This document shows positions 3,057 to 55,389 of a stretch of 59,038 bases of DNA, one piece after another. Position numbers and translations under genes: made by a program. The stretch lies in IMG/VR virus record IMGVR_UViG_3300021256_000061; one strand, 5' to 3'. The notes beneath the pieces are model-generated. The model saw nothing but the letters and a program-made list of their open reading frames with translations, did no database searches and was not told where the DNA came from. Position 1 is the stretch's first letter. Every line of letters begins with the position of its first letter. The stretch comes from a virus. Its lineage: Duplodnaviria; Heunggongvirae; Uroviricota; Caudoviricetes.

Positions 3057-3499
3057 GAAGAAATACCTTAACACAAATGGTAAACTATGAGTTAGCAAAG
3101 CTACTCAACAATAAGGTTTACCCATATGCAAGCGACTACTGCTATTATGCAGCTGGCCATGTCATCGTTACCTGGGACAACTACCTTGGAACCAAGGAAT
3201 ATGAAGAAGGCGATTTCATTGACGACGGCGACAACATTCACGGTGATAAAGTTATTATCCCGTCATACGCCGATGTACTTGACTGGCTCTGGATTGAGCA
3301 TCGCATCGTCGTAGAGCTCAAGCCCACCTTTACTTTTGCTCTCGAGGATAGAGTCGCCTACTATGTGAAAGCGTACCGTGTTGATGAAAAGGAAACGAGT
3401 ACACTCATTCCCGTCTTCGAGAATAAAATGGAAATGTATAGTTTTGAGCTTGCAATATACGAAATAACAAAGAAACTTTTAGAACAAAACATCATATGA
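3053..3499 (+). CDS. divergent family A paralog
   Basis: MVNYELAKLL / PSYADVLDWLWIEHRI / YSFELAIYEITKKLLEQNII parallel the three family A blocks. Confidence 0.65.
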   Translation: MRRNTLTQMVNYELAKLLNNKVYPYASDYCYYAAGHVIVTWDNYLGTKEYEEGDFIDDGDNIHGDKVIIPSYADVLDWLWIEHRIVVELKPTFTFALEDRVAYYVKAYRVDEKETSTLIPVFENKMEMYSFELAIYEITKKLLEQNII

Positions 3500-3849
3500 C
3501 GCATGAGGACATCATAAAAAAAGCATTTGAACTCTACCCCACCAAATGCTATACTGACATGGGCGGCTTCCCCGAGGATGAGAACGAGGAAGTTCGTAAT
3601 GCATATATTAAGGGTTGTGAAGACACCCTTAGGGCTAACAAGGGCAATAGCATTAAAATGCTTATTGCACCATTGAAAGATGGGCACCTGAGCCTTTCCC
3701 CAGAAAAACAGTATTACTGGAGTGACCTCAGCGGCAAATTCATATCTGCAGAGAATGATATTGTGTTAGAAAAGGCAGATACTCCAGATATCAAAATTGA
3801 ATGGGGAGACGAGCCAATCGAAGTTGAAGTTTTAATCGAAAAGAAATGA
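3496..3849 (+). CDS. hypothetical protein
   Basis: Coupled ORF; ends IEWGDEPIEVEV. Confidence 0.7.
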   Translation: MTHEDIIKKAFELYPTKCYTDMGGFPEDENEEVRNAYIKGCEDTLRANKGNSIKMLIAPLKDGHLSLSPEKQYYWSDLSGKFISAENDIVLEKADTPDIKIEWGDEPIEVEVLIEKK

Positions 3850-4505
3850 AAATACCTTTTGACATTAAGTATCGCCCGCAAATCGAAACGGGGGAGTATG
3901 AAGTAGAAACACAAGATGGTTTGCACTCAGTACGTATTATTTGCTGGGATGCAGCTGGGTCACAGCGAGATAATGACATAATTGGTCTTGAAAAAGGTAC
4001 GCTTGGAGCAGAGAATATTCAGAGATATGATGTAACAGGCCACCTTATTGCCGATAGCGCAAAAAGAGGTAATAAAGACCTTGTTCTTATTGGTAGTCCA
4101 ATCTTTGAATGCGGTGATAAGATATTTAACACCGCGTTCCCCAACATGTATGAAATTATTGATATATATTTAAACACAGACGGCAAGGCTGTATATAAAT
4201 ATAAAGACATTGATTCCAATGTGGAATTTTATCAATGCGCCCGCGAGGTTGAATCTTGGGCTGTTTTATGTTCTCCGTCAGTTGGAGAATTTCTCAATTC
4301 ATATGAAGAGCACGAAAAAGAGAATTTTAATAAAGCCCTTGAAAAATGGAGTGAGTCTGAAAAAGAAAAGTTCAATAAAATCTACAGCCTTCTTCGCCAA
4401 GCAGCCGACACACATGCATATAGTACAACCTGTAGGCTTATTGGAGACAAAGAATCTATTGAATTACAAGATTTTTTAAGGGACCTTGCTAAAATGAAGA
4501 AATAA
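3846..4505 (+). CDS. hypothetical protein
   Basis: 219 aa coupled ORF. Confidence 0.75.
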   Translation: MKIPFDIKYRPQIETGEYEVETQDGLHSVRIICWDAAGSQRDNDIIGLEKGTLGAENIQRYDVTGHLIADSAKRGNKDLVLIGSPIFECGDKIFNTAFPNMYEIIDIYLNTDGKAVYKYKDIDSNVEFYQCAREVESWAVLCSPSVGEFLNSYEEHEKENFNKALEKWSESEKEKFNKIYSLLRQAADTHAYSTTCRLIGDKESIELQDFLRDLAKMKK

Positions 4506-4765: not shown

Positions 4766-4806
4766 TAAATCAAAAGAAAAAAGTTTATACATTTGCAATG
4801 GACGGG

Positions 4807-4840
4807 ATTCATCCCACCACTAAAGTAGTGGGCTTTCTCC
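4807..4840 (+). repeat. solo IS200/IS605-type end hairpin
   Basis: attcatcccaccactaaagtagtgggctttctcc resembles the element-end hairpin at 17836-17870. Confidence 0.6.
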
Positions 4841-4865
4841 CGTATTTATCGTAAAAAAATAGATT

Positions 4866-5345
4866 ATGATTACAGAAGATTACGTCAGTTTCGAAACCGC
4901 CAAACTCTTGAAGGATAAGGGGTTTAAGGAGTGGTGCTATAAGTGCTATGGCACTGCTGTATATCATAAAGGTGTACCAATCAGTTTTGATGAAGAATGT
5001 GAACTGAAAGACGAAGGGCTTAAAGATGAAATTGAATATGTAGAAGGCGGGTATCTTTATGATATTGGGTGTGGCAATAGAAAGGAAGATGCAAATGTAT
5101 GGGCCGCTCCGACATTGTGGGTTGCAATAAAGTGGCTGATGAAGAATTATGGTATCCATATTACAGCTGTCCCCAACGGCATTGGAAAAAATGTGTTCTA
5201 TATGGGCATTTACAAAAAATATGATGATTATGGATGGATTTACATAAGTGATGGCCTTGATAAAAAATTTAAAGAAGCAGAATTTTATACACCAGAGGAA
5301 GCCTGCGAAGCTGCTATTAAGTATTGCCTTGAAAATTTGATTTAG
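4866..5345 (+). CDS. family A protein (MITEDYVSFETAKLLK...EAAIKYCLENLI)
   Basis: All three conserved blocks. Confidence 0.9.
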   Translation: MITEDYVSFETAKLLKDKGFKEWCYKCYGTAVYHKGVPISFDEECELKDEGLKDEIEYVEGGYLYDIGCGNRKEDANVWAAPTLWVAIKWLMKNYGIHITAVPNGIGKNVFYMGIYKKYDDYGWIYISDGLDKKFKEAEFYTPEEACEAAIKYCLENLI

Positions 5346-5346
5346 T

Positions 5347-5727
5347 ATGATAACAGAGGATTACGTTAGTTTTGAAACGGCAAAACTCCTGAAGGAAAAG
5401 GGGTTTGATGAAGAATCATGGTGTGTATACAATTTAGTATCTGAAAAATTCGCCAGAGAAATAGTAGACCAGAATTTTAGATATAATCACGGCTTACCTA
5501 ATTATGTTGCATCTGCTCCTACTCTCCAAATGGCCATGAAGTGGTTGAGAGAAGTACATAATATGCACATTGAAGTTAAATATTTTTTTGAGCCACACAT
5601 CTATAAGTACACTATTACTTATACCCCAGTTGCACTTGATAATATTAGTTCACATCCGCAATGTTTTAATACCTATGAAGAAGCCTGCGAAGCAGCGATT
5701 AAGTATTGCCTTGAAAATTTAATTTAA
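5347..5727 (+). CDS. family A protein
   Basis: All three conserved blocks. Confidence 0.9.
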   Translation: MITEDYVSFETAKLLKEKGFDEESWCVYNLVSEKFAREIVDQNFRYNHGLPNYVASAPTLQMAMKWLREVHNMHIEVKYFFEPHIYKYTITYTPVALDNISSHPQCFNTYEEACEAAIKYCLENLI

Positions 5728-5729
5728 TT

Positions 5730-6110
5730 ATGAATAAAGAAGAAAAACAAATATTATTGAAAGACCTTTGTGCAAGGTTGCCTTATGGAGTAATGTGTAC
5801 TGATTTACGACATGGCGACAGTAAAATAACTGAAATCGACATAAAAAGTGATTTGGTATATTGCGCTGATTTTGATGAATACGCAGAGATAGAATATTAC
5901 TGCAAACCATATCTTCGTCCAATGTCAAGTATGACTAAGGAAGAGAGGTTTGTATATGAACAACGCCTTCATGATGTCGGTAGAAGTATTAATGTTATAG
6001 ATGCCGATGATGTTGTATCACATATAGATTGGCTCCTTGCACATCATTTTGACTATCGTGGATTGATTGAAAAAGGCCTTGCTCTTGAAGCACCTGAAGG
6101 AATGTATTAA
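5730..6110 (+). CDS. family B protein (EEKQLLLKDLCARLPYG...YLRPMSSMT...LALEAPEGMY)
   Basis: All conserved blocks. Confidence 0.9.
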   Translation: MNKEEKQILLKDLCARLPYGVMCTDLRHGDSKITEIDIKSDLVYCADFDEYAEIEYYCKPYLRPMSSMTKEERFVYEQRLHDVGRSINVIDADDVVSHIDWLLAHHFDYRGLIEKGLALEAPEGMY

Positions 6111-6111
6111 T

Positions 6112-6345
6112 ATGTCTATATTTAAGAAGCTAAAATATTGGCTGTTTCCTTGCAAGCACAAGTGGGTGCAGGGTGCAGAATATTGGCATAACAAGACAGG
6201 CGCGAATTACGATTACCTCCTGCCAAACCCAATGAAGTACCACCCCGAATATCAATCCAATTGTTACGTCTGTGAAAAGTGCGGAGAGTCAATAGTAACG
6301 ATAGAAAAAATTAAAGCTCCTGAAGGAATGTATAAAATTGAATAG
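6112..6345 (+). CDS. hypothetical protein with family B tail
   Basis: CKHKW...CEKCG body; ends APEGMYKIE. Confidence 0.75.
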   Translation: MSIFKKLKYWLFPCKHKWVQGAEYWHNKTGANYDYLLPNPMKYHPEYQSNCYVCEKCGESIVTIEKIKAPEGMYKIE

Positions 6346-6356
6346 ATTATAAAGTT

Positions 6357-6602
6357 ATGGCTATAATTAAAACACTTGGTGACTTTCGACAATTAACCAA
6401 AGATTTGGATGACGATTTCGCCATTGAATTTCGTGTAAGAACAAGGGTTCCAGAGGAAGAACTAAAAAACCGAAGGTATCCTTATCCTTATGATACCGAA
6501 TACTTTGATGGATTTGAGTTCGATGATGTTGGATATAGTGATAAAGTGGCGTGCTTTGGGGTTACGTTGGAAGCTCCTGAAGGAATGTATAAAATTGAAT
6601 AG
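6357..6602 (+). CDS. hypothetical protein with family B tail
   Basis: Unrelated body; ends LEAPEGMYKIE. Confidence 0.75.
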   Translation: MAIIKTLGDFRQLTKDLDDDFAIEFRVRTRVPEEELKNRRYPYPYDTEYFDGFEFDDVGYSDKVACFGVTLEAPEGMYKIE

Positions 6603-6605
6603 AAT

Positions 6606-6818
6606 ATGCAAATTGAATTTATTTTATTTCTTATTATAATAGTTACGTGGATTCCAATGGGAATTCTTATTGATTATGTTGCAGATAAGTGCAATCTTCC
6701 CATGCAAGATGGTTTAAACCCAGCACCATGGGCACTCCTTGGATTAGTTTGGCCAATATCTTTATTCCCATTTCTTACATATTGCTTATGGCATAAATAT
6801 AGAAACAAAGTAGATTGA
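6606..6818 (+). CDS. small membrane protein
   Basis: Two hydrophobic segments. Confidence 0.7.
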   Translation: MQIEFILFLIIIVTWIPMGILIDYVADKCNLPMQDGLNPAPWALLGLVWPISLFPFLTYCLWHKYRNKVD

Positions 6819-6821
6819 CAT

Positions 6822-7250
6822 ATGATAACAGAAAATTACGTTAGTTTTGAAACCGCCAAACTCCTTAAAGAGAAGGGGTTTAATGAAAAATGTGAGGTGT
6901 GGTATGCTGAATACACGTCAGTGTGGGGTGGGGATTCTTCAGGAGATAGAAAATACATCAATATTCAATTTGATGATAAAAACAGATTTGATGAAGATTA
7001 TAAGTTTTTGTGCTACGCCCCAACCCTTCAAATAGCAATGAAGTGGCTGAGAGAAGAAAAACATTACTACATTCAAGTAATGCTTGATTCTTGGGCTTGT
7101 GGAGGACACTTGGGCTACTATGTTGTAATTCAGAGGACTGACTCAGATTTTGAAATGATGCTTCAAGAAGTTAGGGAAAAAGTTTTCTATGACACACCAG
7201 AAGAAGCTGCAGAAGATGCAATTATGTATATTGTTGAAAATTTAATTTAA
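6822..7250 (+). CDS. family A protein
   Basis: Conserved blocks; ends IVENLI. Confidence 0.9.
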   Translation: MITENYVSFETAKLLKEKGFNEKCEVWYAEYTSVWGGDSSGDRKYINIQFDDKNRFDEDYKFLCYAPTLQIAMKWLREEKHYYIQVMLDSWACGGHLGYYVVIQRTDSDFEMMLQEVREKVFYDTPEEAAEDAIMYIVENLI

Positions 7251-7252
7251 GT

Positions 7253-7462
7253 ATGAAAAAGACTATAATAACTTGCGACAGATGCGGTAAGAATCTGGAT
7301 TTGGATAATTACCACAACCACATCAAAATTGATTTATATTACTGGCACGGTGGAAGCATCGGCGGCGAAGAGGATAGAGACAAGTTTGATTTTGACCTGT
7401 GCGAATCCTGCGCCGAGAAACTATCAAATCTAATCGATAATTGGTTAAAAAATAAGAAATAA
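7253..7462 (+). CDS. small CxxC-pair protein
   Basis: CDRCG...DLCESC. Confidence 0.75.
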   Translation: MKKTIITCDRCGKNLDLDNYHNHIKIDLYYWHGGSIGGEEDRDKFDFDLCESCAEKLSNLIDNWLKNKK

Positions 7463-16546: not shown

Positions 16547-17716
16547 TTAACGTGGGCTTACATACGATTGGGCGGTTGACAGCGCCCTGCCCGTAAGGGG
16601 TGTGAGTCCACCATCAATTGGCAGAGAACTCGATACGGGGTGTTTGGAACGAACTCCAATGTTGATTGCCGCATTCCAATCTGCATCAAGAACAACGCCG
16701 TCAGCGCAGACGTATCGCCTGCCGCAACGACGCCCGTCTTTCTTCCCTGTCCTTGAATCCGTTTGACTGGTGAATGTCGGCGAAACCGTTTCAACTCGCT
16801 TTCCTGCGAGTTGTGCCTTGTGCTCAACAATTTGTCTAAACATATAGAACGGCACCTGCGACATCGCATTGTTGTGCCGTTTTCTTTTATATCCCTCTTT
16901 TGTAGCAGAGGTATTTTTCTTAATTTTTGTAAGGTCCTCAAGGACAATCACTCCCGCATCGGTATTATTGATTAATGTATGAGCTGCACGGTAGCACATG
17001 TCCTTTGAAAGATTGTGTTCCTTCTTTTTTAATTTTTTTCTATGTTTGTAAGCACTCTTGGTTTTTTTCTTCTGTAGAGAGGATTTCAAGTGCCTAATTT
17101 TCCGCCTGTGGTCAAGATATGTTGTATCACGGAATGAGTTCCCTTCAGATGTAACAAAGAATTGACGCATCCCAAGGTCAACACCACATGCATTATCGTT
17201 GGTCATCGGTTTCTCGGGAACCTCAAATGGTATTGACAAGAAAAACCTGCCGTCGCGAAGGAAAATTGTAGGGTCGCATGCCTTAAATGCTGTTAGCATA
17301 TACTCGGCTTTTGAAAAAAGCACGAATGGTATCAATCTGCGCTTGTGTGCCAATGGCCCCGTTAGAGTAATCCCATTAACAGTTAATAACCCATATAGCC
17401 TTTTATCAAGCGTCATTACGAGGGATTTGCGTTTTGGTATGGCATTGGCGTGTTTGTTCGAACGGGCACTTTTTAAAGCAGCCGCAGCGGCTTGCTCGCA
17501 TTTAATAACCATTTGTGAAGATAGAATAGGAAACCGAGCCCTTGTTTTGTCGTAACAAGCCTTATGGATACACTTCATGGTAAGTGGTGACTTCTCTGCG
17601 ATTAGAAGTTCCACGCAGAAATTAAACGCATCGCGGGCCGAGACAAGAAGTTTCTCCCAATGTTGGGAATAGTCCTCATCCATCTGCAGCGGTATGTTAT
17701 AAGTCTCAATTACCAT
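16547..17716 (-). CDS. tnpB: TnpB RNA-guided endonuclease family protein
   Basis: RuvC motifs GVDLG, VLEDL, DADWNAAINI. Confidence 0.92.
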   Translation of the reverse strand: MVIETYNIPLQMDEDYSQHWEKLLVSARDAFNFCVELLIAEKSPLTMKCIHKACYDKTRARFPILSSQMVIKCEQAAAAALKSARSNKHANAIPKRKSLVMTLDKRLYGLLTVNGITLTGPLAHKRRLIPFVLFSKAEYMLTAFKACDPTIFLRDGRFFLSIPFEVPEKPMTNDNACGVDLGMRQFFVTSEGNSFRDTTYLDHRRKIRHLKSSLQKKKTKSAYKHRKKLKKKEHNLSKDMCYRAAHTLINNTDAGVIVLEDLTKIKKNTSATKEGYKRKRHNNAMSQVPFYMFRQIVEHKAQLAGKRVETVSPTFTSQTDSRTGKKDGRRCGRRYVCADGVVLDADWNAAINIGVRSKHPVSSSLPIDGGLTPLTGRALSTAQSYVSPR

Positions 17717-17932: not shown

Positions 17933-17949
17933 TTGGCACGGTTTTTGTA
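17933..17949 (+). promoter_or_regulatory. sigma54-type promoter (-12 variant GT)
   Basis: TTGGCACGGTTTTTGTA, 27 nt before ATG 17976. Confidence 0.6.
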
Positions 17950-17975
17950 ATATATTTTAGAAACTTTTAAAAATT

Positions 17976-18400: not shown

Positions 18401-18499
18401 ATGAGTGTAACTTTACAAGTTGTATTAGGCATAATTTGCGGTATTTGTTGTGGGTACGTAATATATGCGTTTTTGCAAAGTGATGAAAATTTGATTTAG
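18401..18499 (+). CDS. 32-aa single-TM peptide with family A tail
   Basis: MSVTLQVVLGIICGICCGYVIYAFLQSDENLI*. Confidence 0.6.
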   Translation: MSVTLQVVLGIICGICCGYVIYAFLQSDENLI

Positions 18500-19849: not shown

Positions 19850-20791
19850 ATGGATAAGAAAATCACAATTCAAATTAAGTGCAGATTTACAGGTAGTATT
19901 CTTTTTGAATACACTAAAGAGAACAACACAATTAAAGATACATTATTGGAGGGAGTAAAGCAAGGTGCCGACCTCCATGGCGCCGACATCCGTGGTGTTG
20001 ACCTCTCTGATGCTGACCTCTCTGATGCTAAACTCTATGGTGTTGACCTCTCTGGTGCTAATCTCCGTAGTGCTATCCTCTCTGGTGCTAATCTCCGTAG
20101 TGCTATCCTCCCTGGTGCTAATCTCCGTAGTGCTATCCTCCCTGGTGCTAATCTCCGTAGTGCTATCCTCCCTGGTGCTAAACTCTATGGTGTTGACCTC
20201 TCTGGTGCTGACCTCTCTGATGCTAAACTCTATGGTGTTGACCTCTCTGGTGCTAATCTCCGTAGTGCTATCCTCTCTGGTGCTAATCTCTCTGACGCTG
20301 ACCTCCGCTGTGCCGACTTCCGTGGTGCTAAACTCTATGGTGTTGACCTCTCTGGTGCTAAACTCTATGGCGCTAAACTCTCTGACGCTGACCTCCGTGG
20401 TGCTAATCTCCGTAGTGCTATCCTCCCTGGTGCTGACCTCCGTGGTGCTAAAAATATTCCATACTTTCCCCTCGCTTGTCCCACCGACGGGGCTTTTATA
20501 GGATGGAAGAAGGTTGGTGGCAAATGGCTTGTTAAACTCCGTATTCCCGAAGATGCCAAAAGGAGTTCGGCAACTACGAGGAAATGCCGATGCGATAAGG
20601 CGGAAGTCTTGGCAATCACCGACCTTAAAGGAAACAACCCTGTCGAGGAAACCACCAACAATAACTATGTAAAAACCACCTATAAGGTTGGGGAAATGGT
20701 GTACCCCGATAAATTTAATGATGATAGGTGGAACGAGTGTTCCCACGGAATCCATTTCTTTATTAATAAACAAGATGCGATAGATTTTTAG
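19850..20791 (+). CDS. pentapeptide-repeat protein with DUF5758-like C-terminal domain
   Basis: A[D/N]LxG pentapeptides; GAFIGWKK...KCRC...ECSHGIHFF. Confidence 0.9.
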   Translation: MDKKITIQIKCRFTGSILFEYTKENNTIKDTLLEGVKQGADLHGADIRGVDLSDADLSDAKLYGVDLSGANLRSAILSGANLRSAILPGANLRSAILPGANLRSAILPGAKLYGVDLSGADLSDAKLYGVDLSGANLRSAILSGANLSDADLRCADFRGAKLYGVDLSGAKLYGAKLSDADLRGANLRSAILPGADLRGAKNIPYFPLACPTDGAFIGWKKVGGKWLVKLRIPEDAKRSSATTRKCRCDKAEVLAITDLKGNNPVEETTNNNYVKTTYKVGEMVYPDKFNDDRWNECSHGIHFFINKQDAIDF

Positions 20792-25093: not shown

Positions 25094-25140
25094 CAACATG
25101 AGAACAAACTAATTGAAAAAAACGTATAAAACAGAATAAC

Positions 25141-29014: not shown

Positions 29015-29254
29015 ATGAAAAATGTAGAATTTGAAGGATGTAATGTAGTTTATGGTAAAGGGCAATCAGAATATATTCCTTTACACGCGCAAAAGGTGGG
29101 CAATGTATCCGTAACCTGCTATAAGCTTTCATTTAAAGAACGCCTCAAGGTTTTGTTTACAGGCGTAATTTGGCTGGGGCAAATGAACTTCGGTAAACCA
29201 CTACAGCCACAATTACCATCGGTTAATAAAAACGATTTAATTGAAAATGTATAA
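29015..29254 (+). CDS. conserved phage hypothetical protein
   Basis: GQSEYIPL...CYKLSFKER...FGKPLQP. Confidence 0.75.
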   Translation: MKNVEFEGCNVVYGKGQSEYIPLHAQKVGNVSVTCYKLSFKERLKVLFTGVIWLGQMNFGKPLQPQLPSVNKNDLIENV

Positions 29255-29267
29255 AACTGACTAGACT

Positions 29268-30845: not shown

Positions 30846-31118
30846 ATGAGCAATATAGATTACACCAAAGAAAATGTAAAGGTGCTTGATAGCATTGATT
30901 TTTCGCCCTATTTTAAATACATTGAAAAGGGAAAAAGCGTGTCGACATTCATTAGGGTTATAGAAAACGAATTCGACCACACAGAACTCGTCAACAACGA
31001 TATTCTTGAAGGCTTTATTTTTGACTGGCTGAGCGAAAGCGAGATTGTTGAATATTTTGAAAAACGCTATCCAGATAAATTCAAAACCATAGAGTATACG
31101 GAATATAGATTTTGCTAA
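30846..31118 (+). CDS. hypothetical protein flanked by family A tail repeats
   Basis: cttgaaaatttgatttag on both sides. Confidence 0.7.
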   Translation: MSNIDYTKENVKVLDSIDFSPYFKYIEKGKSVSTFIRVIENEFDHTELVNNDILEGFIFDWLSESEIVEYFEKRYPDKFKTIEYTEYRFC

Positions 31119-31144
31119 TACAGCCTTGAAAATTTGATTTAGAT

Positions 31145-32826: not shown

Positions 32827-33015
32827 ATGTTTGACGAAGAGATAAAGAATTGTATTTTTACTGTATGGAACTACAAGTATAATAAATCTTTAGCTTGCAA
32901 GATTGTTAAAAAACTTGATGATAAATTTGTTAGAGTAATCGAGTATCCAACAAATGGTGACAGTGAAATTCATACCGTCGTTGGATGGACAGACATTAAA
33001 AATAAAACCGAATAA
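32827..33015 (+). CDS. small hypothetical protein
   Basis: Start reassigned to MFDEEIK. Confidence 0.6.
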   Translation: MFDEEIKNCIFTVWNYKYNKSLACKIVKKLDDKFVRVIEYPTNGDSEIHTVVGWTDIKNKTE

Positions 33016-34082: not shown

Positions 34083-34099
34083 CTGGCATGATTCTTGCA
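34083..34099 (+). promoter_or_regulatory. sigma54-type promoter
   Basis: CTGGCATGATTCTTGCA, 32 nt before ATG. Confidence 0.7.
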
Positions 34100-34130
34100 T
34101 ATGCGTTTTTAGAACAAAAAAAATTAAACA

Positions 34131-36736: not shown

Positions 36737-36753
36737 TTGGCACGATTCTTGCA
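36737..36753 (+). promoter_or_regulatory. sigma54-type promoter
   Basis: TTGGCACGATTCTTGCA (full consensus), 36 nt before ATG. Confidence 0.8.
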
Positions 36754-36788
36754 TTAGAACATTATAAATAAATTTAACAATAAAAAAT

Positions 36789-37693: not shown

Positions 37694-37710
37694 TTGGCAC
37701 GATTCTTGCA
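37694..37710 (+). promoter_or_regulatory. sigma54-type promoter
   Basis: TTGGCACGATTCTTGCA, 27 nt before ATG. Confidence 0.8.
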
Positions 37711-37736
37711 TGTATGCCACATAAAAAGATTTTATC

Positions 37737-40862: not shown

Positions 40863-41090
40863 ATGAACAGGAAAGACGAAATCATCATCGAGGCCGAGAA
40901 GGACCTTATGGACCTCATACCAAGACTCAAGGGAATGCATGGGGCGTACCTCCGTGAACGCGACTACCGTACCATACGAAACCTCGCAATGGCGGCTAAC
41001 AAAATAAAGGGAGACTGCATGAGAATCATGGACACTTTCGATTTCGTGGACCCCAACATGAGGGACGGGGACCGCGAGGTGCTGAGGTAA
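40863..41090 (+). CDS. hypothetical protein flanked by family B tail repeats
   Basis: GC-richer than neighbours; tail remnant at 41092-41129. Confidence 0.7.
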   Translation: MNRKDEIIIEAEKDLMDLIPRLKGMHGAYLRERDYRTIRNLAMAANKIKGDCMRIMDTFDFVDPNMRDGDREVLR

Positions 41091-41135
41091 CAAAAAAGGA
41101 CTTGCTCTTGAAGCAAAAGAAGGATTATACAGATT

Positions 41136-41976: not shown

Positions 41977-42993
41977 ATGAACAAAGTAGAAAGATATCAA
42001 ACAATTGATGGCTTGTTATTTGAAGATTACGTAAAAGCTCTTGAGCATGAAAACGCAACCCTTCTTGCTATGGTAAAGAAAAATACGACCGTAGACGAGA
42101 AAAGCTTGCGTGATATATATTGTAAAGTTATAGACCTCCCTAACGGCCCTGGCGTATACCTCTTAAATAATTTGAAATATGATAAGAAGTATGTTGGCTC
42201 TGCAATATCTATACGAAATAGACTGTACAATTTCTTGGCTGGAGGACATCACTCTAATAAAACGCTCGCGGACGATAGAATAAACTCACAATTAACCGAC
42301 TGGGAAATTTCCGTCCTGGAAAACATAAAACAAGAAGATATTTGTGAATTGGAAGAAAAAGAAAAATATTATATAGAACTCTTGAAAAGTTATGTACCAA
42401 ATGGCTATAACGTTGTAAAACCATGTCGGAAAAACAAAGACTTAGAACATGCGGAAAATAATTATAGCACCACAATGTCGAAGCACCTCCTACATGAAAA
42501 ATTTACGTCTATAGAACATAAGGCACATAGGTTGGGCTATGAAGTTGCATTTAACGAAAAAGAATTGGACACTTTTTTATGTAATGCAAATCCCCCTGCG
42601 CGATGGCGCATAGATTTCACCCTTTCTCTTTTATTACAAAATAGGGTCACAAAAACCGTTGAAATTTCGGACTTGTGCTTTATTCCTGATTTTTTAGAAC
42701 GAAATTCTCTTTTTTATAAAAATGAATTGTACTCTGTAAAAAGAGTTCCAAACCAGGACGATACGGAATGGTATTATTCCTACACCTGTAATAAAAAACA
42801 GTACGAAGAGAGAGGATTTAAAACTTATGACGACGCCGTATTGGGCTTTACAAAATCTCGCCTTGAAAGAATACGCGAATTTGCAGAGAATGAAAAAGAA
42901 AACCTATCAGATGAGATATATAGAAAACTGACCAGCATAAACCCTGAAAATTATATGACTGTGTTATATGTCACATATAAGAAAGCTGCTTAA
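41977..42993 (+). CDS. GIY-YIG (homing) endonuclease
   Basis: PGVYLL...KYVGSA..IRNRL...EKYYI...NGYN. Confidence 0.85.
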   Translation: MNKVERYQTIDGLLFEDYVKALEHENATLLAMVKKNTTVDEKSLRDIYCKVIDLPNGPGVYLLNNLKYDKKYVGSAISIRNRLYNFLAGGHHSNKTLADDRINSQLTDWEISVLENIKQEDICELEEKEKYYIELLKSYVPNGYNVVKPCRKNKDLEHAENNYSTTMSKHLLHEKFTSIEHKAHRLGYEVAFNEKELDTFLCNANPPARWRIDFTLSLLLQNRVTKTVEISDLCFIPDFLERNSLFYKNELYSVKRVPNQDDTEWYYSYTCNKKQYEERGFKTYDDAVLGFTKSRLERIREFAENEKENLSDEIYRKLTSINPENYMTVLYVTYKKAA

Positions 42994-49234: not shown

Positions 49235-49495
49235 TTAAAATCCGAATGAATAAAGTGCACCCGAATTAATGGCGTGCCCAATGTTGGTGAGGTCCGTATT
49301 GAAGAGTTCCTCCTTTGTAAGGGTTTGTTCGCTGTCATCAATGTAGTTGATGATGTAGTAGGTCCCCTCCTCGTCTCCAAAGAAGATTGCCTTGTCTGAG
49401 CGCAGGCCTCCATTGAGACTGATGAAAAACTCATGCTTTTCGTCTTCAATGAGTTCGTTGAGGCGCTCGATGCTTGTTATTTTCTCGTATTCCAT
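49235..49495 (-). CDS. hypothetical protein
   Basis: FFISLNGGLRSDK motif. Confidence 0.75.
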   Translation of the reverse strand: MEYEKITSIERLNELIEDEKHEFFISLNGGLRSDKAIFFGDEEGTYYIINYIDDSEQTLTKEELFNTDLTNIGHAINSGALYSFGF

Positions 49496-49524
49496 TGTTG
49501 TGTTTATTGGTTTATTATTATCCT

Positions 49525-49541
49525 ATCAAAGAACGTGCCAA
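49525..49541 (-). promoter_or_regulatory. sigma54-type promoter (-12 variant GA)
   Basis: TTGGCACGTTCTTTGAT. Confidence 0.65.
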
Positions 49542-49582
49542 AGTTAAATAGAATTTTAGAAAAATGCAATTTTTTTTTTCTT

Positions 49583-49604
49583 TATATTACTCAAAAGAGT
49601 ACCT
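49583..49604 (-). promoter_or_regulatory. 21-nt motif copy 5
   Basis: AGGTACTCTTTTGAGTAATATA. Confidence 0.7.
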
Positions 49605-49678
49605 ATATATCTTAAAAAGCCAAAGGGCTGTCAAAATTGGACACGGTGGCAGCCCCTCGGCAAAAACGATATATGGAA

Positions 49679-50578
49679 TTAAGCAGTTACTTGTGCTGGT
49701 TCAGATACTTTGGTGTCGGTGGTTTCCTCTTTGAGGATTTCCCTTAAAGCCTTGATAGCATCTTTGATTTCTTCGGAGTTGTGCTTTGAAAGGTTGTGCT
49801 CGGCTTTGATGTTCTTGTAACCCTCAACAATAAGGTTGAGAGAGTGAGAAAGGGTGTAGTTCTCGATGAACAGCGGAGAAATTTCCTTGTATTTCTGTTC
49901 TTTGAGGCTCTTTATCAAGTCCCAATCGTTACCTGCGACCTTGATGAAGTCCCTTGCCCAAGAGCCTACGACATTCATATTTGTGCCCTCGTAGTCTCCG
50001 CCACCTCTGCCGTTTCCCTCTACGGTGAGCAGGGGGAGAGGGTGGATTGCCATTTCAAGTCCCCTCACACGCCAAAGGTCGAGGTATTCCTTTTTATCGG
50101 TGTTTATGATGTACCTTACGGCATCTTCATCGCTTTCTTTTGTATCTATGATGATTTCGGGTTTTTCCTTACGGAGCACCTTACCGTTTTCATCTTCAAG
50201 AGAGCCTGCAAGGGAATAGAGGCATTCTGCCTTATCTTCGGCGTTGATGAACAGGTCGCTGTCTTTGCTCGTAAAGAACTTCTCGAAAGAAAGGAATGTT
50301 TTTCCCTCGGCTACTTTTTTCTGCCAAATTGACATAGCCTGCTTGCGAGTAACTTTCTTGAAAAGGGTGTTAGGTTCGGGGTCTGCGTAGTCTCCAGCCC
50401 ACACGAGGTTTGCGCCACCTACTTGTTTGAGATAGGTAGCAACTGCACCTACAAAGTCGTTGTTGAGATATGAGTGCTCCATCAGTTTCAGACCGTTGCC
50501 ATAGCGGTGTGAATTGAAGAACCCCTTAATAGTCTTTCGGTTTGTGCCCAAAATCACAGGGCGATAGTATTGTCCCAT
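49679..50578 (-). CDS. conserved phage hypothetical protein
   Basis: MGQYY...GLKLMEHSY...VWAGDYAD...HPLPLLT.EGNGRGGGDY...GSWARD. Confidence 0.8.
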   Translation of the reverse strand: MGQYYRPVILGTNRKTIKGFFNSHRYGNGLKLMEHSYLNNDFVGAVATYLKQVGGANLVWAGDYADPEPNTLFKKVTRKQAMSIWQKKVAEGKTFLSFEKFFTSKDSDLFINAEDKAECLYSLAGSLEDENGKVLRKEKPEIIIDTKESDEDAVRYIINTDKKEYLDLWRVRGLEMAIHPLPLLTVEGNGRGGGDYEGTNMNVVGSWARDFIKVAGNDWDLIKSLKEQKYKEISPLFIENYTLSHSLNLIVEGYKNIKAEHNLSKHNSEEIKDAIKALREILKEETTDTKVSEPAQVTA

Positions 50579-50613
50579 AATCGTTTTAATTTATTGGTTT
50601 ATGCTTTTACTAT

Positions 50614-50630
50614 TGCAAGGTTCGTGCCAA
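50614..50630 (-). promoter_or_regulatory. sigma54-type promoter
   Basis: TTGGCACGAACCTTGCA. Confidence 0.8.
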
Positions 50631-50636
50631 ACCTTT

Positions 50637-50876
50637 CTAAAGGACATCGTTTTCTGCTAAAAAATCATAAAATTCAGCATCTGTCATATCCTTGATGTCT
50701 TCAATGGTCTTGCTCGTCGGGATTGTTGCAATCAGGTGATAGCCCCCTGTAATATCCTCGTCATATACCTCAATGCCTTCTTCGTCACAAACACAAGTCT
50801 CCCTGTTGAGACCAGCATTAAAGTAATAACGGAAGCCATATCCGCCACGAGAGTAATCTACAATATTCTTTGACAT
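50637..50876 (-). CDS. hypothetical protein
   Basis: Minus-arm ORF. Confidence 0.7.
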   Translation of the reverse strand: MSKNIVDYSRGGYGFRYYFNAGLNRETCVCDEEGIEVYDEDITGGYHLIATIPTSKTIEDIKDMTDAEFYDFLAENDVL

Positions 50877-50883
50877 AACTTGA

Positions 50884-51126
50884 TTAGATTTCTTTAACTT
50901 CTACTATCTGGAAAACAGTTTCATATTCTTCATCCTCGTCAGACCAGGATGTTGTGACGTTTTCAGGATGTACGAGCCAATCGGCTTCTTCCTGCCAATT
51001 TTCTCCATAGACTCCCTCGATAAAGTCCTTTACATCCTCACGGAGTTTACTCTGCAACTTTTCTTTGTTATCAGAGCAGGCCAGCAATTCTGTCGAATCA
51101 CCTCTGCGTATGTATTCTACAAACAT
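50884..51126 (-). CDS. hypothetical protein
   Basis: Minus-arm ORF. Confidence 0.7.
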   Translation of the reverse strand: MFVEYIRRGDSTELLACSDNKEKLQSKLREDVKDFIEGVYGENWQEEADWLVHPENVTTSWSDEDEEYETVFQIVEVKEI

Positions 51127-51138
51127 AACTCGATTAGA

Positions 51139-51357
51139 TTATAATGATTGTATCAGTTCCTGAATTGTTTTACTGGATGGTTTGTTTTTGAGGCTTTGTT
51201 TAATCCTCTGGGCTACATCACATCCATCTCGTTTAAGAGCCACATACCACAGGGGAATACCCCAGCCCCAAGGGTATTTATCTGCACGCTTTTCTACTAT
51301 AATGGTAGCGGTATTCCTCGCGTTACGATATTTCTCGGTGTGGTATGTGTAACTCAT
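51139..51357 (-). CDS. hypothetical protein
   Basis: Minus-arm ORF. Confidence 0.65.
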   Translation of the reverse strand: MSYTYHTEKYRNARNTATIIVEKRADKYPWGWGIPLWYVALKRDGCDVAQRIKQSLKNKPSSKTIQELIQSL

Positions 51358-51368
51358 AACTTGGTTAC

Positions 51369-51767
51369 TTACTGGGGGATGTTGTTTTTCACATAGTATT
51401 CGGTGACATTCTCCATATCGGTATTCTCGAAATCCGAATCGGTATCAACGTAGTCACCCTCGTTGTATTTGTCGCTTGCGAGTTCTGCCGCTTCTTCTTC
51501 ATCCCTTGCCTCTACGGTGATGTCAGTCCAGCCGTGGGTGTGGAAACGGAAAGTAAACTTCTTCTTGCCCTCGTTTGGCGTTTCAGTTTCGGGGATGTTG
51601 GTGTTTCCGCCATATTCCCAAAGGGATGTGGTCTGTACGGATGTGAGTTTAATCTCGCCCTTTTTAATCATATCAGCGAGCGCACAGCCCAATGCTTCAT
51701 TACCATAACGACTTGCGTAGGAAACAACATCGTCCAGTACTTCGGTAGTGTTTTCTTTGAGTTTCAT
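51369..51767 (-). CDS. hypothetical protein
   Basis: C-terminal ITVEARDEEEA.E.A (DpnD/PcfM-like pattern). Confidence 0.7.
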   Translation of the reverse strand: MKLKENTTEVLDDVVSYASRYGNEALGCALADMIKKGEIKLTSVQTTSLWEYGGNTNIPETETPNEGKKKFTFRFHTHGWTDITVEARDEEEAAELASDKYNEGDYVDTDSDFENTDMENVTEYYVKNNIPQ

Positions 51768-51797
51768 ATTCGTTGTTTATTGGTTCACCTATGTAAA

Positions 51798-51814
51798 AGC
51801 AAAGACCGTGCCAG
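51798..51814 (-). promoter_or_regulatory. sigma54-type promoter
   Basis: CTGGCACGGTCTTTGCT. Confidence 0.8.
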
Positions 51815-51819
51815 TTTTT

Positions 51820-52512
51820 TCAGAGCAAACATTTTCTGGAAACATTTCTGGGAACGCTCTTGCTATAATCAATCACGGCGTTCATTTTTGACTGACTATA
51901 ATTAACAGCATTATCGTAGCATTCTTTAACTTTATTACTTTGTTCTTCACCAAGAAGTTCGAGATTGATAAAGGTCGTGGCAATAATTCCCCACTCGTGA
52001 GGTTTGTAGATAAACATCCCTATATCACAAAAATTGAACATAGTATGTTTTTCGTCCTTATATGTGTACTCACCAATTTGTGATGCTGCTATGTGATTGC
52101 CCTTATAATTGAACATATCATATAAACTCATGTTGGCTCTTTCTTTTAACCTCTGGAGAGCGTGAGCGGAATAGACTACGATTTGGCTTATAGTGGGCGT
52201 TGCAGTAAAGCCTTTATAACAGGGGTTTATGTATTGCTTTACCCCCTGATTGGTTGTATATTCGTAGAAGTGCATTGACTCAACAGTGACACACTTACCA
52301 GCCTTGACTCTTACCCACGCACAGATAACTTTGTTATTTTTTGGTGTTATATATGTTGTGACGGCGAGAGTTTTATGTCCCTCGGTGGCAGTCTTGGGAT
52401 TCAGGTATTTACGATACTTTATTGAAATACCCTGACGGAGAGAGTCGAGCCAAAGGCAATCACTGAGGAGTTCCTTGCTCAACTCTTCCTTTGTCATTGT
52501 ATAAGTAATCAT
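51820..52512 (-). CDS. hypothetical protein
   Basis: Start reassigned to ATG 52512; YSAHALQRLKER. Confidence 0.75.
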   Translation of the reverse strand: MITYTMTKEELSKELLSDCLWLDSLRQGISIKYRKYLNPKTATEGHKTLAVTTYITPKNNKVICAWVRVKAGKCVTVESMHFYEYTTNQGVKQYINPCYKGFTATPTISQIVVYSAHALQRLKERANMSLYDMFNYKGNHIAASQIGEYTYKDEKHTMFNFCDIGMFIYKPHEWGIIATTFINLELLGEEQSNKVKECYDNAVNYSQSKMNAVIDYSKSVPRNVSRKCLL

Positions 52513-52542
52513 AACTGTGTTTTCTGTGTTCACCTATGTAAA

Positions 52543-52559
52543 AGCAAAGACCGTGCCAG
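52543..52559 (-). promoter_or_regulatory. sigma54-type promoter
   Basis: CTGGCACGGTCTTTGCT. Confidence 0.8.
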
Positions 52560-52569
52560 AACGACACGG

Positions 52570-52752
52570 TCAGTTATTTTCGTTTTTGTTTTCTCGATTT
52601 TTTTCTCTTTCTAAAAAGTAATCTAACTGCCAGATTAGTGCACAGCCCCACGCCAGGGCTGCCGAGTAGTCTTTCTTTATTACGCTACCAATGACACATA
52701 CGAGTGTGGCGAGCATAATTAACACTTCCCACCAGGTTAAAGTTGCATACAT
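52570..52752 (-). CDS. small membrane protein
   Basis: Two TM segments. Confidence 0.65.
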   Translation of the reverse strand: MYATLTWWEVLIMLATLVCVIGSVIKKDYSAALAWGCALIWQLDYFLEREKNRENKNENN

Positions 52753-52759
52753 AACTCAA

Positions 52760-53035
52760 TTACTTTTTGGGGTTCATTACGATGTTGTAAATCTGTTCGA
52801 TGACTGTAACGTGGAAGTCTGCTAGGGCGTCGACATCTATGCCATGTTCCAGCGTGTTCGTCGTAAGTTCCAGCCTGTCGTTCTTGATTTTCAGGTACAT
52901 CAGGGCAGTGGTGAGGTCATCATCACCGTAATCCAGAACCATCAGTGTTCCCAGAGGAAAGGCGTAGTGCTTCTTATACTGGTTCTTGACAGTTTCCTTT
53001 AACTCATGGAGCAGTGTATTTTTTGACTTTGCCAT
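52760..53035 (-). CDS. hypothetical protein
   Basis: Minus-arm ORF. Confidence 0.7.
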   Translation of the reverse strand: MAKSKNTLLHELKETVKNQYKKHYAFPLGTLMVLDYGDDDLTTALMYLKIKNDRLELTTNTLEHGIDVDALADFHVTVIEQIYNIVMNPKK

Positions 53036-53066
53036 AACAATTGTTGTTTAGTTAAACTTACACCGA

Positions 53067-53098
53067 CAAATATAATAAATATTTTTTGTCGGTGCAAG
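53067..53098 (-). promoter_or_regulatory. housekeeping-type promoter overlapped by a 10-bp inverted repeat
   Basis: CTTG-N20-TATATTTG; caccgacaaa-N14-tttgtcggtg at 53061-53094. Confidence 0.55.
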
Positions 53099-53112
53099 TC
53101 TTTCTTCACTTT

Positions 53113-53577
53113 TTATGCAGCGTCTTTGGAAAAGTAGTGGACTGACGAATAGCAATCAGAGCCGTTTTCTTCGGTGACATCTTCGCTGATTTCATCGTAG
53201 CCGATATATCGCATAAGATTGCGAAGATAGCCATGCTCATGTTTCCAATCCCCCCAAGAAATTGACACTGATAATGCATCATCGAATCGGCTGATGTCAT
53301 CGTTGTAGAGTCCGTTGTCGGAAAGGTAGTTGTTTACCATATCTACTTCGGGGAGTTTGGAATTGGGAACTACAAGAACTTCCCACTCCCTTATGTTTTT
53401 GGTATTGCCGTCCGCATCTTCGAGAATGAGGTGGGGGCAGTAATCTCCGTTGAGGCGTTCATCACCCCAGTCGATGTACTCCTTAACTTTCCAGGCCTTT
53501 TCCTTGTTGGGCTTCCAAGAGTAGTTCTTTTCCTCTAACACCCATACTTCTTTGCCGATGATTTTGTTCTTGTCCAT
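53113..53577 (-). CDS. hypothetical protein
   Basis: WGDWKHEHGYL motif. Confidence 0.75.
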   Translation of the reverse strand: MDKNKIIGKEVWVLEEKNYSWKPNKEKAWKVKEYIDWGDERLNGDYCPHLILEDADGNTKNIREWEVLVVPNSKLPEVDMVNNYLSDNGLYNDDISRFDDALSVSISWGDWKHEHGYLRNLMRYIGYDEISEDVTEENGSDCYSSVHYFSKDAA

Positions 53578-53609
53578 AATATTTGTGTTTATCGGTTTAC
53601 TTGATTATA

Positions 53610-53626
53610 AGCAAAGTTCATGCCAA
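53610..53626 (-). promoter_or_regulatory. sigma54-type promoter
   Basis: TTGGCATGAACTTTGCT. Confidence 0.75.
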
Positions 53627-53629
53627 ACC

Positions 53630-54313
53630 TTATTCGTTCCTTAAGTAATCGAGTAAACCTCTCATATCTTTTATAGGCAGTTCGTCGATGTCGTGCCATG
53701 TATTCTCTCCGTTATCTTCCCTTTCTCCGTGAATGTGATACCACATTGTTCCCTCGCCTTCCATTTCGAAGATTTTTTCTATCGCTGGGATTTCAAGGGA
53801 CGATAAACCTTGTGCTTCTTCTTCCGCAGAGGGGAGATTGAAGAAAATCTCCTTTGGATGTTCTTCACTCGTGCCGTCGAGCAGTGGACTTATCTGATGG
53901 CGCAGGTATTCTCTTGCACTATCTTCATCATCGAACAGGCGGTCACAGTCTTTGCAGTGATAACGGCCATCCTCTGCTGTCTCCAGATTCTTGGATTCAC
54001 AGTAGGGGCATTTCTGTTCTTCCTTACAAATTTCTTCTGGATAGCAGTAAGCAGTATCACCGTTCTCGAACTCGATTAACCACAAGGGCATAGCCTCAAT
54101 GTCGCATTCTTCGGCAGTAGCACGACGGATTACCTTAAAGGCCATACCATTATGCTCGCTGTTATCGTCGTAAGGAGAGTTGAATAGACTGGTGAAGCCA
54201 GTTTCTTCATACATAGAAAAGCAGTCGTTCTTAAATTCTTGAAACTGCTCGTCGGTCATTTCGTCGTCGGTAGTAAAATGTCCCCACTTCAGATTAAATT
54301 CTTTTAATGTCAT
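53630..54313 (-). CDS. hypothetical protein with zinc ribbon
   Basis: CPYCES...YHCKDC. Confidence 0.75.
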   Translation of the reverse strand: MTLKEFNLKWGHFTTDDEMTDEQFQEFKNDCFSMYEETGFTSLFNSPYDDNSEHNGMAFKVIRRATAEECDIEAMPLWLIEFENGDTAYCYPEEICKEEQKCPYCESKNLETAEDGRYHCKDCDRLFDDEDSAREYLRHQISPLLDGTSEEHPKEIFFNLPSAEEEAQGLSSLEIPAIEKIFEMEGEGTMWYHIHGEREDNGENTWHDIDELPIKDMRGLLDYLRNE

Positions 54314-54347
54314 AGCGAATGTGTTTTATAGTGTACGCTTTCTATTA

Positions 54348-54364
54348 TGCAAAGTTCATGCCAA
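54348..54364 (-). promoter_or_regulatory. sigma54-type promoter
   Basis: TTGGCATGAACTTTGCA. Confidence 0.75.
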
Positions 54365-54367
54365 AGC

Positions 54368-54405
54368 ATAAAAAAAGTACAGGGGGGGTTCACAACTGCC
54401 CTGTA
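54368..54405 (-). terminator. intrinsic terminator
   Basis: gtacagggc...ccctgtac plus T7. Confidence 0.7.
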
Positions 54406-54465
54406 CCTGACACTATGGAAAACACATATAATAGAGGTAACTTTCGTTATCTGGAATATGCTTGC

Positions 54466-54801
54466 TTACATCGTCGAAAAGACTGTGACCGCCTCAAGCT
54501 CAGTTTCTTCTTCTAGGTCTGGGGCTTCCATTTGCTTCTTTGCAAAAGCATAGAAATCCTCGACGGTTTCAAGTTTCTTACGCCAGATAGTCCAAGTCTT
54601 TAATGGTTTGTCAGATGCCTGTTCCTCGTCGAGAAAGGTGTAGCTTTGAACATCCATTGTTCGATAGGTGCACACGCCGACAGCCTTTGCTGGCAGTACC
54701 CCTCTGTGGGAATTGCTGTACCCCATCTCTTGAAGTTTCTTCTCGACCGAATTCTTTTCTTCGGGAGATGTATTCTGATTGAATAAGAAATATCCGCCCA
54801 T
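54466..54801 (-). CDS. hypothetical protein
   Basis: Minus-arm ORF. Confidence 0.65.
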   Translation of the reverse strand: MGGYFLFNQNTSPEEKNSVEKKLQEMGYSNSHRGVLPAKAVGVCTYRTMDVQSYTFLDEEQASDKPLKTWTIWRKKLETVEDFYAFAKKQMEAPDLEEETELEAVTVFSTM

Positions 54802-54805
54802 AATA

Positions 54806-55339
54806 TTAGTTTGCTTCTATGATGTCTATATCGTCAATGGTTTCGAAATCCTCATCTCCGTCAGTAAAGGCATTGATGCCGAAGCAGGCAGGAGTAGGAA
54901 CACCTTTGCAGATGCAAATGCCTGTGGTTCTGACAATGCCGAGGTCATCGAGAGTACCGAACACATCGAAATGGCTGTTACCCATAGAGAATGTGTAGTG
55001 CCACTTATTGTTCTCAAAATCCTTTTCAATTTCTTCAAGGAAAATAGAGGTTGTGCAGTTTTTCCCCTTGTAAGAGAAACCAATCATAAAGTCATGCTTG
55101 AACTCCAACACATAGGGGGTTTCTGACGGCTCGTGGTTTGTTATCTCATTGGGATAGAGTTCCACACCGAGAAGCGCGTAACCAAGTGCCTGTAAGACAC
55201 AATCCGCTTCATCTTCATCAATACCATTGTCGATGAGCACCTGCTGGGCTTTTGCCACATCTTCCTCGGAAACATTCACGAGGCGAGCAGTATTTTCGTT
55301 ACGCTCTTTAAGTGAGCCAGTTAAAATTATCTTTGTCAT
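54806..55339 (-). CDS. hypothetical protein
   Basis: LIDNGIDEDEADCVLQALGYALLGVELYP motif. Confidence 0.75.
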   Translation of the reverse strand: MTKIILTGSLKERNENTARLVNVSEEDVAKAQQVLIDNGIDEDEADCVLQALGYALLGVELYPNEITNHEPSETPYVLEFKHDFMIGFSYKGKNCTTSIFLEEIEKDFENNKWHYTFSMGNSHFDVFGTLDDLGIVRTTGICICKGVPTPACFGINAFTDGDEDFETIDDIDIIEAN

Positions 55340-55372
55340 AATCTTGTGTTTTGCTGTTGTTACTTTTGTTTA

Positions 55373-55389
55373 TGCAAAGACCGTGCCAC
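55373..55389 (-). promoter_or_regulatory. sigma54-type promoter
   Basis: GTGGCACGGTCTTTGCA. Confidence 0.75.

Follow-up and report, generated by a model that had tools for sequence, protein, structure and literature searches.

Unrelated small genes that carry the coding 3' end of an amplified gene family in a rumen jumbo phage: probable scars of recombination

The stretch of phage DNA analyzed here (the window; 59,038 nt, IMG/VR record IMGVR_UViG_3300021256_000061, Caudoviricetes) has a GC content of 39%, with nearly every gene on the same strand up to ~43 kb. Near its left end, three consecutive genes terminate in the same peptide, APEGMY. The first gene belongs to a multicopy family, termed B; the other two, termed Y1 and Y2, are small genes unrelated to B and to each other. 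The shared tail is the 3' end of family B, which in this rumen jumbo phage is tandemly amplified and turns over rapidly. With a probability of roughly 60%, the tails on Y1 and Y2 are recombination scars, or result from modular shuffling, with exchange in the conserved 3' coding block of these paralogs. The locus contains the following genes and features:

5730-6110, plus strand: B gene (126 aa) with all three family blocks, N-terminal MNKEEKQILLKDLCARLPYG, middle KPYLRPMSSMT and C-terminal HHFDYRGLIEKGLALEAPEGMY before the stop; matches phrog_10841 (1.5e-9)
6085-6110, plus strand: native B tail GAAGCACCTGAAGGAATGTATTAA, the stop of which lies 1 base before the ATG of the next gene, Y1
6112-6345, plus strand: Y1, a Cys/His-rich small gene (body 6112-6312) with an in-frame B-type tail (6314-6345, APEGMYKIE and stop)
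6310-6316, plus strand: joint of the Y1 body and tail, ATTAAAG, at a 7-nt in-frame microhomology, ATTGAAG, common to native Y1 (contig L006) and a B tail of contig L193
6310-6615, plus strand: mosaic block of tail, spacer, Y2, tail and next ATG, at which homology to five independent relatives starts and stops
6345-6352, plus strand: 8 bases, GATTATAA, by which the spacer separating Y2 from the Y1 tail exceeds that of relatives; absent behind 6344 in a contig from run X3
6357-6602, plus strand: Y2, of a widespread family of small phage proteins (body ~6357-6566), with an in-frame B-type tail (6570-6602, EAPEGMYKIE and stop)
6606-6818, plus strand: gene of a 70-aa membrane-type protein, the start region of which lies within the Y2 tail

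Immediately before their stop codons, the B gene (126 aa) reads ...GLALEAPEGMY, Y1 (77 aa from ATG 6112) ...EKIKAPEGMYKIE and Y2 (81 aa) ...GVTLEAPEGMYKIE. A first-pass annotation of this DNA had pointed out the common ends and an identity of 33 nt between 6314-6346 and 6571-6603, and both were borne out by direct reading of the sequence and its translations. The bases beside the repeat differ, with an a at 6313 and a g at 6570 on one side and a t at 6347 and an a at 6604 on the other. The unrelatedness of the Y1 and Y2 bodies, noted at the same time, was confirmed by an all-versus-all BLASTP of the window open reading frames, in which similarity was confined to the 14-residue tail; beyond that tail, neither body resembled the B family. 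BLASTP clustering linked Y2 with the B cluster through these 14 residues alone, and PHROG and Pfam scans of Y1 and Y2 yielded no B-family match. When up to 3 mismatches were allowed, the tail 18-mer GCTCCTGAAGGAATGTAT occurred 8 times in the window, compared with 0.02 expected from shuffled sequences.

The window contains three multicopy families of small genes, A, B and C. Family A has 8-9 copies with the pattern MITEDYVSFETAKLLKEKGF...CLENLI-stop. Family B has at least 7, with the pattern MTxEEKQLLLKDLCARLPYG...KPYLRPMSSMTEEE...DWLNAHHFDYRGLIEKGLALEAPEGMYK. The N-terminal B block, M-x-x-EEKQLLLKDLCARLPYG, is present in the genes at 5730, 25141, 28044, 38653 and 39918 and absent from Y1 and Y2, which also lack the middle block KPYLRPMSSMTEEE and the C-terminal helix DWLNAHHFDYRGLIEKGLAL and share with B only the last 6-9 residues plus KIE. 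Pattern scans of IMG/VR revealed more than 100 further B C-termini on rumen and gut contigs 100-413 kb in length, and the tail is nearly invariant across more than 100 B proteins. No GenBank phage matched positions 4800-7300 in a blastn search. Synonymous codon identity in the C-terminal block of B is 0.63 within the window and 0.51 between loci, with 0.36 expected from codon usage. The higher value within the window fits exchange at the DNA level, and the conserved B blocks thus appear to be recurrent crossover points.

The tail is absent in all 14 Y1 homologs (13 from databases, and contig L192). These homologs keep the Cys/His pattern and end in ...TIEKIEDGK... or in ...TIEKIKCK-stop. In blastn, the Y1 body is 93% identical at the DNA level to that of L006, up to position 6316. 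At the joint, native Y1 of L006 reads ...AAAATTGAAG followed by ACGG, the B tail of L193 ...GCCATTGAAG followed by CGCC, and the window ...AAAATTAAAGCTCC. In a longer alignment the three sequences are ...GAAAAAATTGAAG before ACGG, ...CTCGCCATTGAAG before CGCC, and ...GAAAAAATTAAAGCTCC, respectively. A relative from run X2 that spans 6081-6344 has a G at 6313, hence ATTGAAG; the ATTAAAG of the window reflects one later G to A change. Exchange or deletion at ATTGAAG would yield the in-frame ...EKIEAPEGMY. The order that such an event would start from is seen in L007, where a tail-less Y1 (3364-3603) is followed after a gap of 51 nt by a full B gene (3655-4119) ending in LALEAPEGMY-stop, a plausible precursor of the Y1 fusion. 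In relatives the junction between the upstream tail and Y2 is GAATAA-GTT-ATG, and the window has the same junction plus the 8 bases. The X2 contig, 1,123 nt long, contains tail-Y1-tail, with ~400 nt on each side unaligned at the threshold of the X-run comparison (≥85% identity). The relatives from runs X2, X3 and X4 were compared as contigs only; the uncovered parts, and apparent joints among B paralogs, are uninformative with respect to structural variants. A scan of metagenome contigs for the Y1-tail joint returned 39 loci, every one a match by chance; a Y1 body was absent from each.

For Y2, the matches in 80 viral loci, most of them in phages with genomes or contigs of 30-90 kb, are limited to residues 4-70, and the ends of these proteins are unrelated; tail-less Y2 ends occur in L114, L115, L177 and L003. 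The tail or a remnant of it is restricted to the closest Y2 homologs, which form a single jumbo-phage lineage and all reside in B-bearing phages. The first-pass annotation had suggested a search for homologs of the two bodies that lack the tail, and such homologs exist for Y1 (14/14) as well as for Y2 (the 80 loci). Sequence comparison thus supports a foreign origin of the bodies relative to the tail, and capture of the latter.

Among the closest homologs, the Y2 tail decays. In L001, Y2 ends in LEAPKDMYKTK-stop. In L193, a change of GGA to TGA produces LEVPE-stop, with ATGTATAAAACCGAATAG persisting after the stop; in L195, a +1 frameshift (insertion of 1 nt) produces LEATEGNA-stop; and in L225, an early TAA results in TMPE-stop, again with a relic, AATGTATAAAACCGAATAG, behind it. 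Y2 forms ending in GVTMPE-stop were considered as tail-less, which was rejected in view of the decayed tails in L225. Likewise rejected was P0016 (L225:100-441) as a Y2 protein with an N-terminal B tail: in this gene call, which spans two genes, a TAG stop is translated as Q, so that a 38-aa mini-B (MSWNFYPEDRFSSYDDYIKYLKEMGFALEAPEGMHKED before the stop) is fused to Y2. The mini-B form is also present in L082, L093 and L038. In the Y2 lineage (n=12 sequences), mean pairwise identity is 81% in the body versus 26% in the tail. In the three decayed tails the distal 18 nt are nearly intact and the proximal 15 nt strongly changed.

Structure predictions place the tail in different surroundings on B and Y2. 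An AlphaFold2 model of B, made with 73 B sequences, has a pLDDT of 86-95 over residues 60-126, including the tail (86-91), which is therefore predicted to be ordered and to belong to a folded C-terminal domain. Against the PDB, Foldseek returned no match to this model with E below 1. In the Y2 model the last strand comprises residues 65-70, and residues 71-81 form a coil with a pLDDT of 47-56, such that the tail is predicted to be disordered. From the fast divergence of the tail, its decay and the low-confidence coil, it follows that the Y2 tail peptide is free of the constraint that acts on it in B. In the favored model, both small genes tolerate the peptide as a disordered addition that does not act as a functional module. 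If instead APEGMY(KxE) were a short linear motif, for example for docking, sorting or stability, required by B proteins and gained adaptively by Y1 and Y2, its near-invariance in more than 100 B proteins and its intact, in-frame state on both genes of the window would be explained. Arguing against this possibility, which we consider improbable, are the location of the B tail inside the modeled C-terminal domain, of which Y1 and Y2 have just the last 6-9 residues, its loss by stop codon or frameshift in several Y2 orthologs, an evolution far faster than that of the body, and the occurrence of relics out of frame and behind stop codons (see below). Also considered was a head-protease site of the T4 type (L/I-x-E) within the tail; it was dropped, as the LALE/A spacing, judged by eye, does not fit.

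In the first-pass annotation the locus was interpreted as an integron-like array, composed of units of a new gene plus a tail repeat, with coding termini as attachment sites. The first part of this description holds insofar as the bodies are foreign to the tail and tail-Y2-tail is a discrete mosaic block; integron-like capture finds no support. It would require site-specific insertion by a dedicated recombinase encoded elsewhere in the genome, with the coding tail as attachment site. The repeated appearance of gene plus repeat, the foreign bodies and a tyrosine integrase gene ~1.6 kb downstream in L193 are in its favor. In line with the remark that the window lacks an integrase, Pfam scans covering 53 of its proteins (≥100 aa, neither A nor B members) detected no integrase, serine recombinase or annealing protein, a result that applies to the window and not to the whole genome. 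The tails share no hairpin or inverted repeat, and the folds of five tail regions have z-scores of -0.59 to +1.30. A single crossover position was not seen among the joints, which lie at ATTGAAG in Y1, near GGGGTT/TTGGAAG in Y2, at AATG at 29243 and at AAAAAGG at 41095 and thus vary, with microhomology. In Y2 orthologs the supposed attachment site decays. The annotation had also called for empty-site alleles, and no true empty site was found: upstream of Y2 the relatives hold a full B or a mini-B, not Y1. The process is not site-specific, an integron-like mechanism is not supported, and we consider it hardly credible. A role of the tail as a terminator or riboregulator was dropped as well, in that the RNA of the five tail regions folds no better than shuffled sequences.

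The mosaic block is the only part of the neighborhood that is common to the relatives. In blastn, homology extends over 6310-6608 in L001/L002, 6310-6612 in L193/L194, 6314-6615 in L195 and 6314-6612 in L225, with partial cover in the X3 contig (6309-6470) and the X4 contig (6307-6603). Directly upstream of Y2, these L contigs all contain a B-tailed gene (a B of 129, 125 or 146 aa, or the 38-aa mini-B), and in each of them Y2 has a tail of its own or a relic of one. In the five independent contig contexts, the body upstream of tail-Y2-tail and the gene downstream of it are different each time, and the differences between the five independent relatives are bounded by tails around a single small gene.

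A block that is bounded by tails and has differing flanks in each context is also expected if the array behaves like the PeSL (promoter-early stem-loop) mobile regulatory cassettes of the T4-type phages RB49 and phi1 (PMC2839356; Comeau et al. 2014, PMC4122927). Recombination between flanking PeSL copies excises circles containing a single open reading frame, which possibly re-insert elsewhere (Arbiol et al. 2010, PMC2839356). According to this scenario, a small gene with one tail would be excised as a circle by homologous recombination between tails and would re-insert at another B tail, thereby duplicating it; the array would have grown by insertion rather than by loss of B bodies. General phage recombination would suffice, without a site-specific enzyme. 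The mechanism was experimentally demonstrated for the PeSL repeats of RB49 and phi1 (PMC2839356). Further in line with it are rare variants common to adjacent tails (GCT...KIE in Y1 and Y2, AKEG around 40863-41090) and the X2 contig, in which tail-Y1-tail lies between unaligned flanks. However, the initial fusion of a body with a tail is still required, and this step is better explained by the microhomology joint. Relics of variable length, partly out of frame, suit deletion more than reciprocal exchange. A genome with a single tail at the same site and without the cassette was not found, the scan for the Y1-tail joint yielded only chance matches, and the data consist of contigs, in which circles are invisible. 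As the main rival of the favored model, movement of such cassettes is possible but, on balance, rather unlikely.

In the favored model, recombination at the B 3' block, Y1 and Y2 were originally tail-less and each became joined to the tail of a B gene by recombination at very short homology. In the fusion, the B body would have been lost or replaced, and with it the last codons and the stop of the small gene, whose frame would now run on into the few remaining B codons and end at the B stop. Of the two events, that of Y1 would be recent and that of Y2 older, common to a lineage of related phages. In the simplest history, Y1, a B gene (B') and the already tailed Y2 stood in a row, and the B' body was subsequently lost between two copies of ATTGAAG. 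The conserved blocks of the family would double as crossover points, which would give tail-Y2-tail different neighbors in each genome. Since the genes are 1-12 nt apart, the last 20-40 nt of a gene are the start region of the next, and deletions that spare them would leave the downstream gene intact. The distal ~18 nt (ATGTATAAAAYTGAATAG) tend to persist, presumably because the start region of the closely spaced downstream gene lies in them; the 23 nt directly before ATG 6606 are unpaired in the minimum-free-energy fold. The distal-tail motif TAAAAYNGAMTAR was found 6 times versus 0.24 expected, in a count that comprises only tails and relics.

Several observations weigh against this model. 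The combination GAATAG-N3-ATG, which bears on the start-region role, is not enriched (3 found, 0.75 expected). No ancestral or sister genome with the order Y1, B', tailed Y2 was present among the viral or metagenome contigs; the precursor order is a composite of separate contigs. Between the tails of Y1 and Y2, 33/33 positions are identical, whereas equivalent tail pairs in relatives show differences at 5 to at least 10 positions. Because pure deletion alone leaves this identity unexplained, gene conversion must be assumed. The identity probably reflects local gene conversion or a recent common origin, but a permutation test showed no significant excess of similarity among neighboring over distant tails (p = 0.19), for which reason local conversion is something we infer rather than observe. 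Finally, the GC-rich gene 40863-41090, flanked by AKEG tails (see below), fits insertion with tail duplication as well as it fits deletion. The identical tails and this 52% GC gene lean toward insertion or local gene conversion, and the array may owe its form partly to loss of B bodies and partly to insertion of tail-bearing cassettes.

For the unit order we rely on the original assembly, because the array was assembled across 33-nt repeats and the Logan unitigs of the probable source run end exactly at the tails (5762-6107, 6078-6343, 6317-6600 and 6574-7300). The order might accordingly be a false path through the repeats in the metagenome assembly graph, which we regard as very unlikely: the repeat is far shorter than a sequencing read, the four unitigs have an even depth (18.6-25.1), tail-spacer-Y2-tail is contiguous in the five independent relatives, and the X2 contig covers tail-Y1-tail. 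The unit order is supported by the even depth and by these relatives. The body-tail fusions of Y1 and Y2 each lie within one unitig.

Tail remnants are not confined to the Y1-Y2 locus. At least five B-tail and two A-tail relics or fusions occur within 43 kb, among them the following:

18401-18499, plus strand: family A, a hydrophobic mini-ORF of 32 codons directly after an A gene, ending in an A tail, ...DENLI-stop
25123-25140, plus strand: short B-tail relic CGTATAAAACAGAATAAC directly before the ATG of the B gene at 25141
29243-29264, plus strand: frame-shifted B-tail relic GAAAATGTATAAAACTGACTAG that ends the unrelated gene 29015-29254, with the joint at AATG
31122-31142, plus strand: A-family tail relic SLENLI-stop, in frame behind the TAA stop of the unrelated gene 30846-31118
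41095-41135, plus strand: orphan B tail KGLALEAKEGLY downstream of the stop codon of gene 40863-41090, not in its frame, extending into ATG 41136

The L195 ortholog of gene 29015-29254 ends in ...NDLI-stop, without the relic. Gene 40863-41090 (75 aa) lies between the tail of the B gene at 40416 and the orphan B tail, both of the rare AKEG variant. Its GC content of 51.8% is the highest in the block (mean 37.9%, sd 3.9), and by its composition it looks recently acquired. Orphan or truncated tails are also present in the related contigs L045, L051, L059, L072, L087, L094 and L015. The gene 32827-33015 ends in ...DIKNKTE-stop, and its terminal sequence TAAAACCGAATAA (33003-33015) matches the distal tail motif; it may be another relic.

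Among known systems, PeSL-mediated shuffling in T4-type phages is the closest analog. In both cases short repeats surround functionally uncharacterized small genes located in hyperplastic genome regions of large phages, relatives differ within the bounds of the repeats, and repeat recombination explains the insertion, deletion or replacement of single genes. The PeSL, however, is an intergenic early promoter/terminator with a stem-loop, whereas the repeat described here is coding and has no predicted structure, and the sigma-54-type promoters of this genome are located elsewhere. Because the repeat is protein-coding, recombination in this case generates chimeric C-termini. Phage systems recombine diverged sequences efficiently, as shown for lambda Red (Martinsohn et al. 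2008, PMC2327257). With phage mosaicism as explained by the linker idea of modular evolution and by illegitimate or homeologous recombination, the locus shares joints near gene ends, very short or diverged homology and varied neighbors. It differs in that the crossover sequence comes from one amplified paralog family and the relics are in-frame extensions on neighboring genes. Integron cassettes (attC/attI/IntI) likewise are units of a promoterless open reading frame plus a repeat in one orientation, but here no IntI was found in the window, an attC-type fold is missing, the microhomology joints are variable and the repeat is coding. Birth-and-death turnover of paralogs also proceeds by deletions between short repeats, in which a 3' remnant becomes the new end of the upstream gene; the density of tail relics seen here is unusual for it. 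The phenomenon falls within known phage mosaicism, of which it is a variant, rather than representing a system of a new kind.

The case displays, at nucleotide resolution, the gain, loss and fusion of small genes in the hyperplastic arms of an uncultured jumbo phage. The ends of amplified paralog families serve as recurrent breakpoints, and their remnants become C-terminal extensions of unrelated genes. For annotation it follows that a common terminal peptide is no proof of homology or function, and clustering pipelines may falsely join families via tails, as happened here with Y2 and B in BLASTP. If cassettes do move from tail to tail, the PeSL idea would be extended to coding repeats and to phages of Bacteroidota. 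A more far-reaching proposal, which we consider speculative and rather unlikely, is that the coding ends of B (...LALEAPEGMYK-x-E-stop) and A (...CLENLI-stop) are portable recombination linkers of Bacteroidota jumbo phages. Cassettes of one gene and one linker each would pass from linker to linker by general homologous recombination, without a dedicated recombinase. The 52% GC gene at 40863 would be an example of a foreign gene captured in this manner, with the linker providing its stop codon and, simultaneously, the start region for whichever gene follows, a coding-sequence counterpart of the integron or PeSL systems.

Several other genes of the window were noted in passing. A Pfam search identified a TnpB-like gene (OrfB_IS605 / Cas12f1-like TNB) at 16550-17716 on the minus strand and a 338-aa GIY-YIG protein, possibly a homing endonuclease, at 41977-42993 on the plus strand, where the plus-strand block ends. 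Both are candidates for promoting local recombination. A TnpB/IS605 OrfB gene is also present in the related 108-kb contig L001 (988-2244), ~4 kb upstream of the B-Y2 pair. Sigma-54-type -24/-12 motifs (TGGCACG-N4-TTGCW) precede many genes, for example cttggcacgattcttgcatg before 37737. They are located as follows:

17933-17975, 34083-34130, 36737-36788 and 37694-37736: sigma-54-type motif sites
49491-55389, minus strand: sigma-54-type motif sites (repeat family D19)

The gene 19850-20791 has a tandem period of 15 nt over ~640 nt (19904-20548), indicative of a pentapeptide-repeat protein. One window protein matches Pfam PF00805 with E = 3.5e-56, and this match was assigned to the gene via the repeat period.

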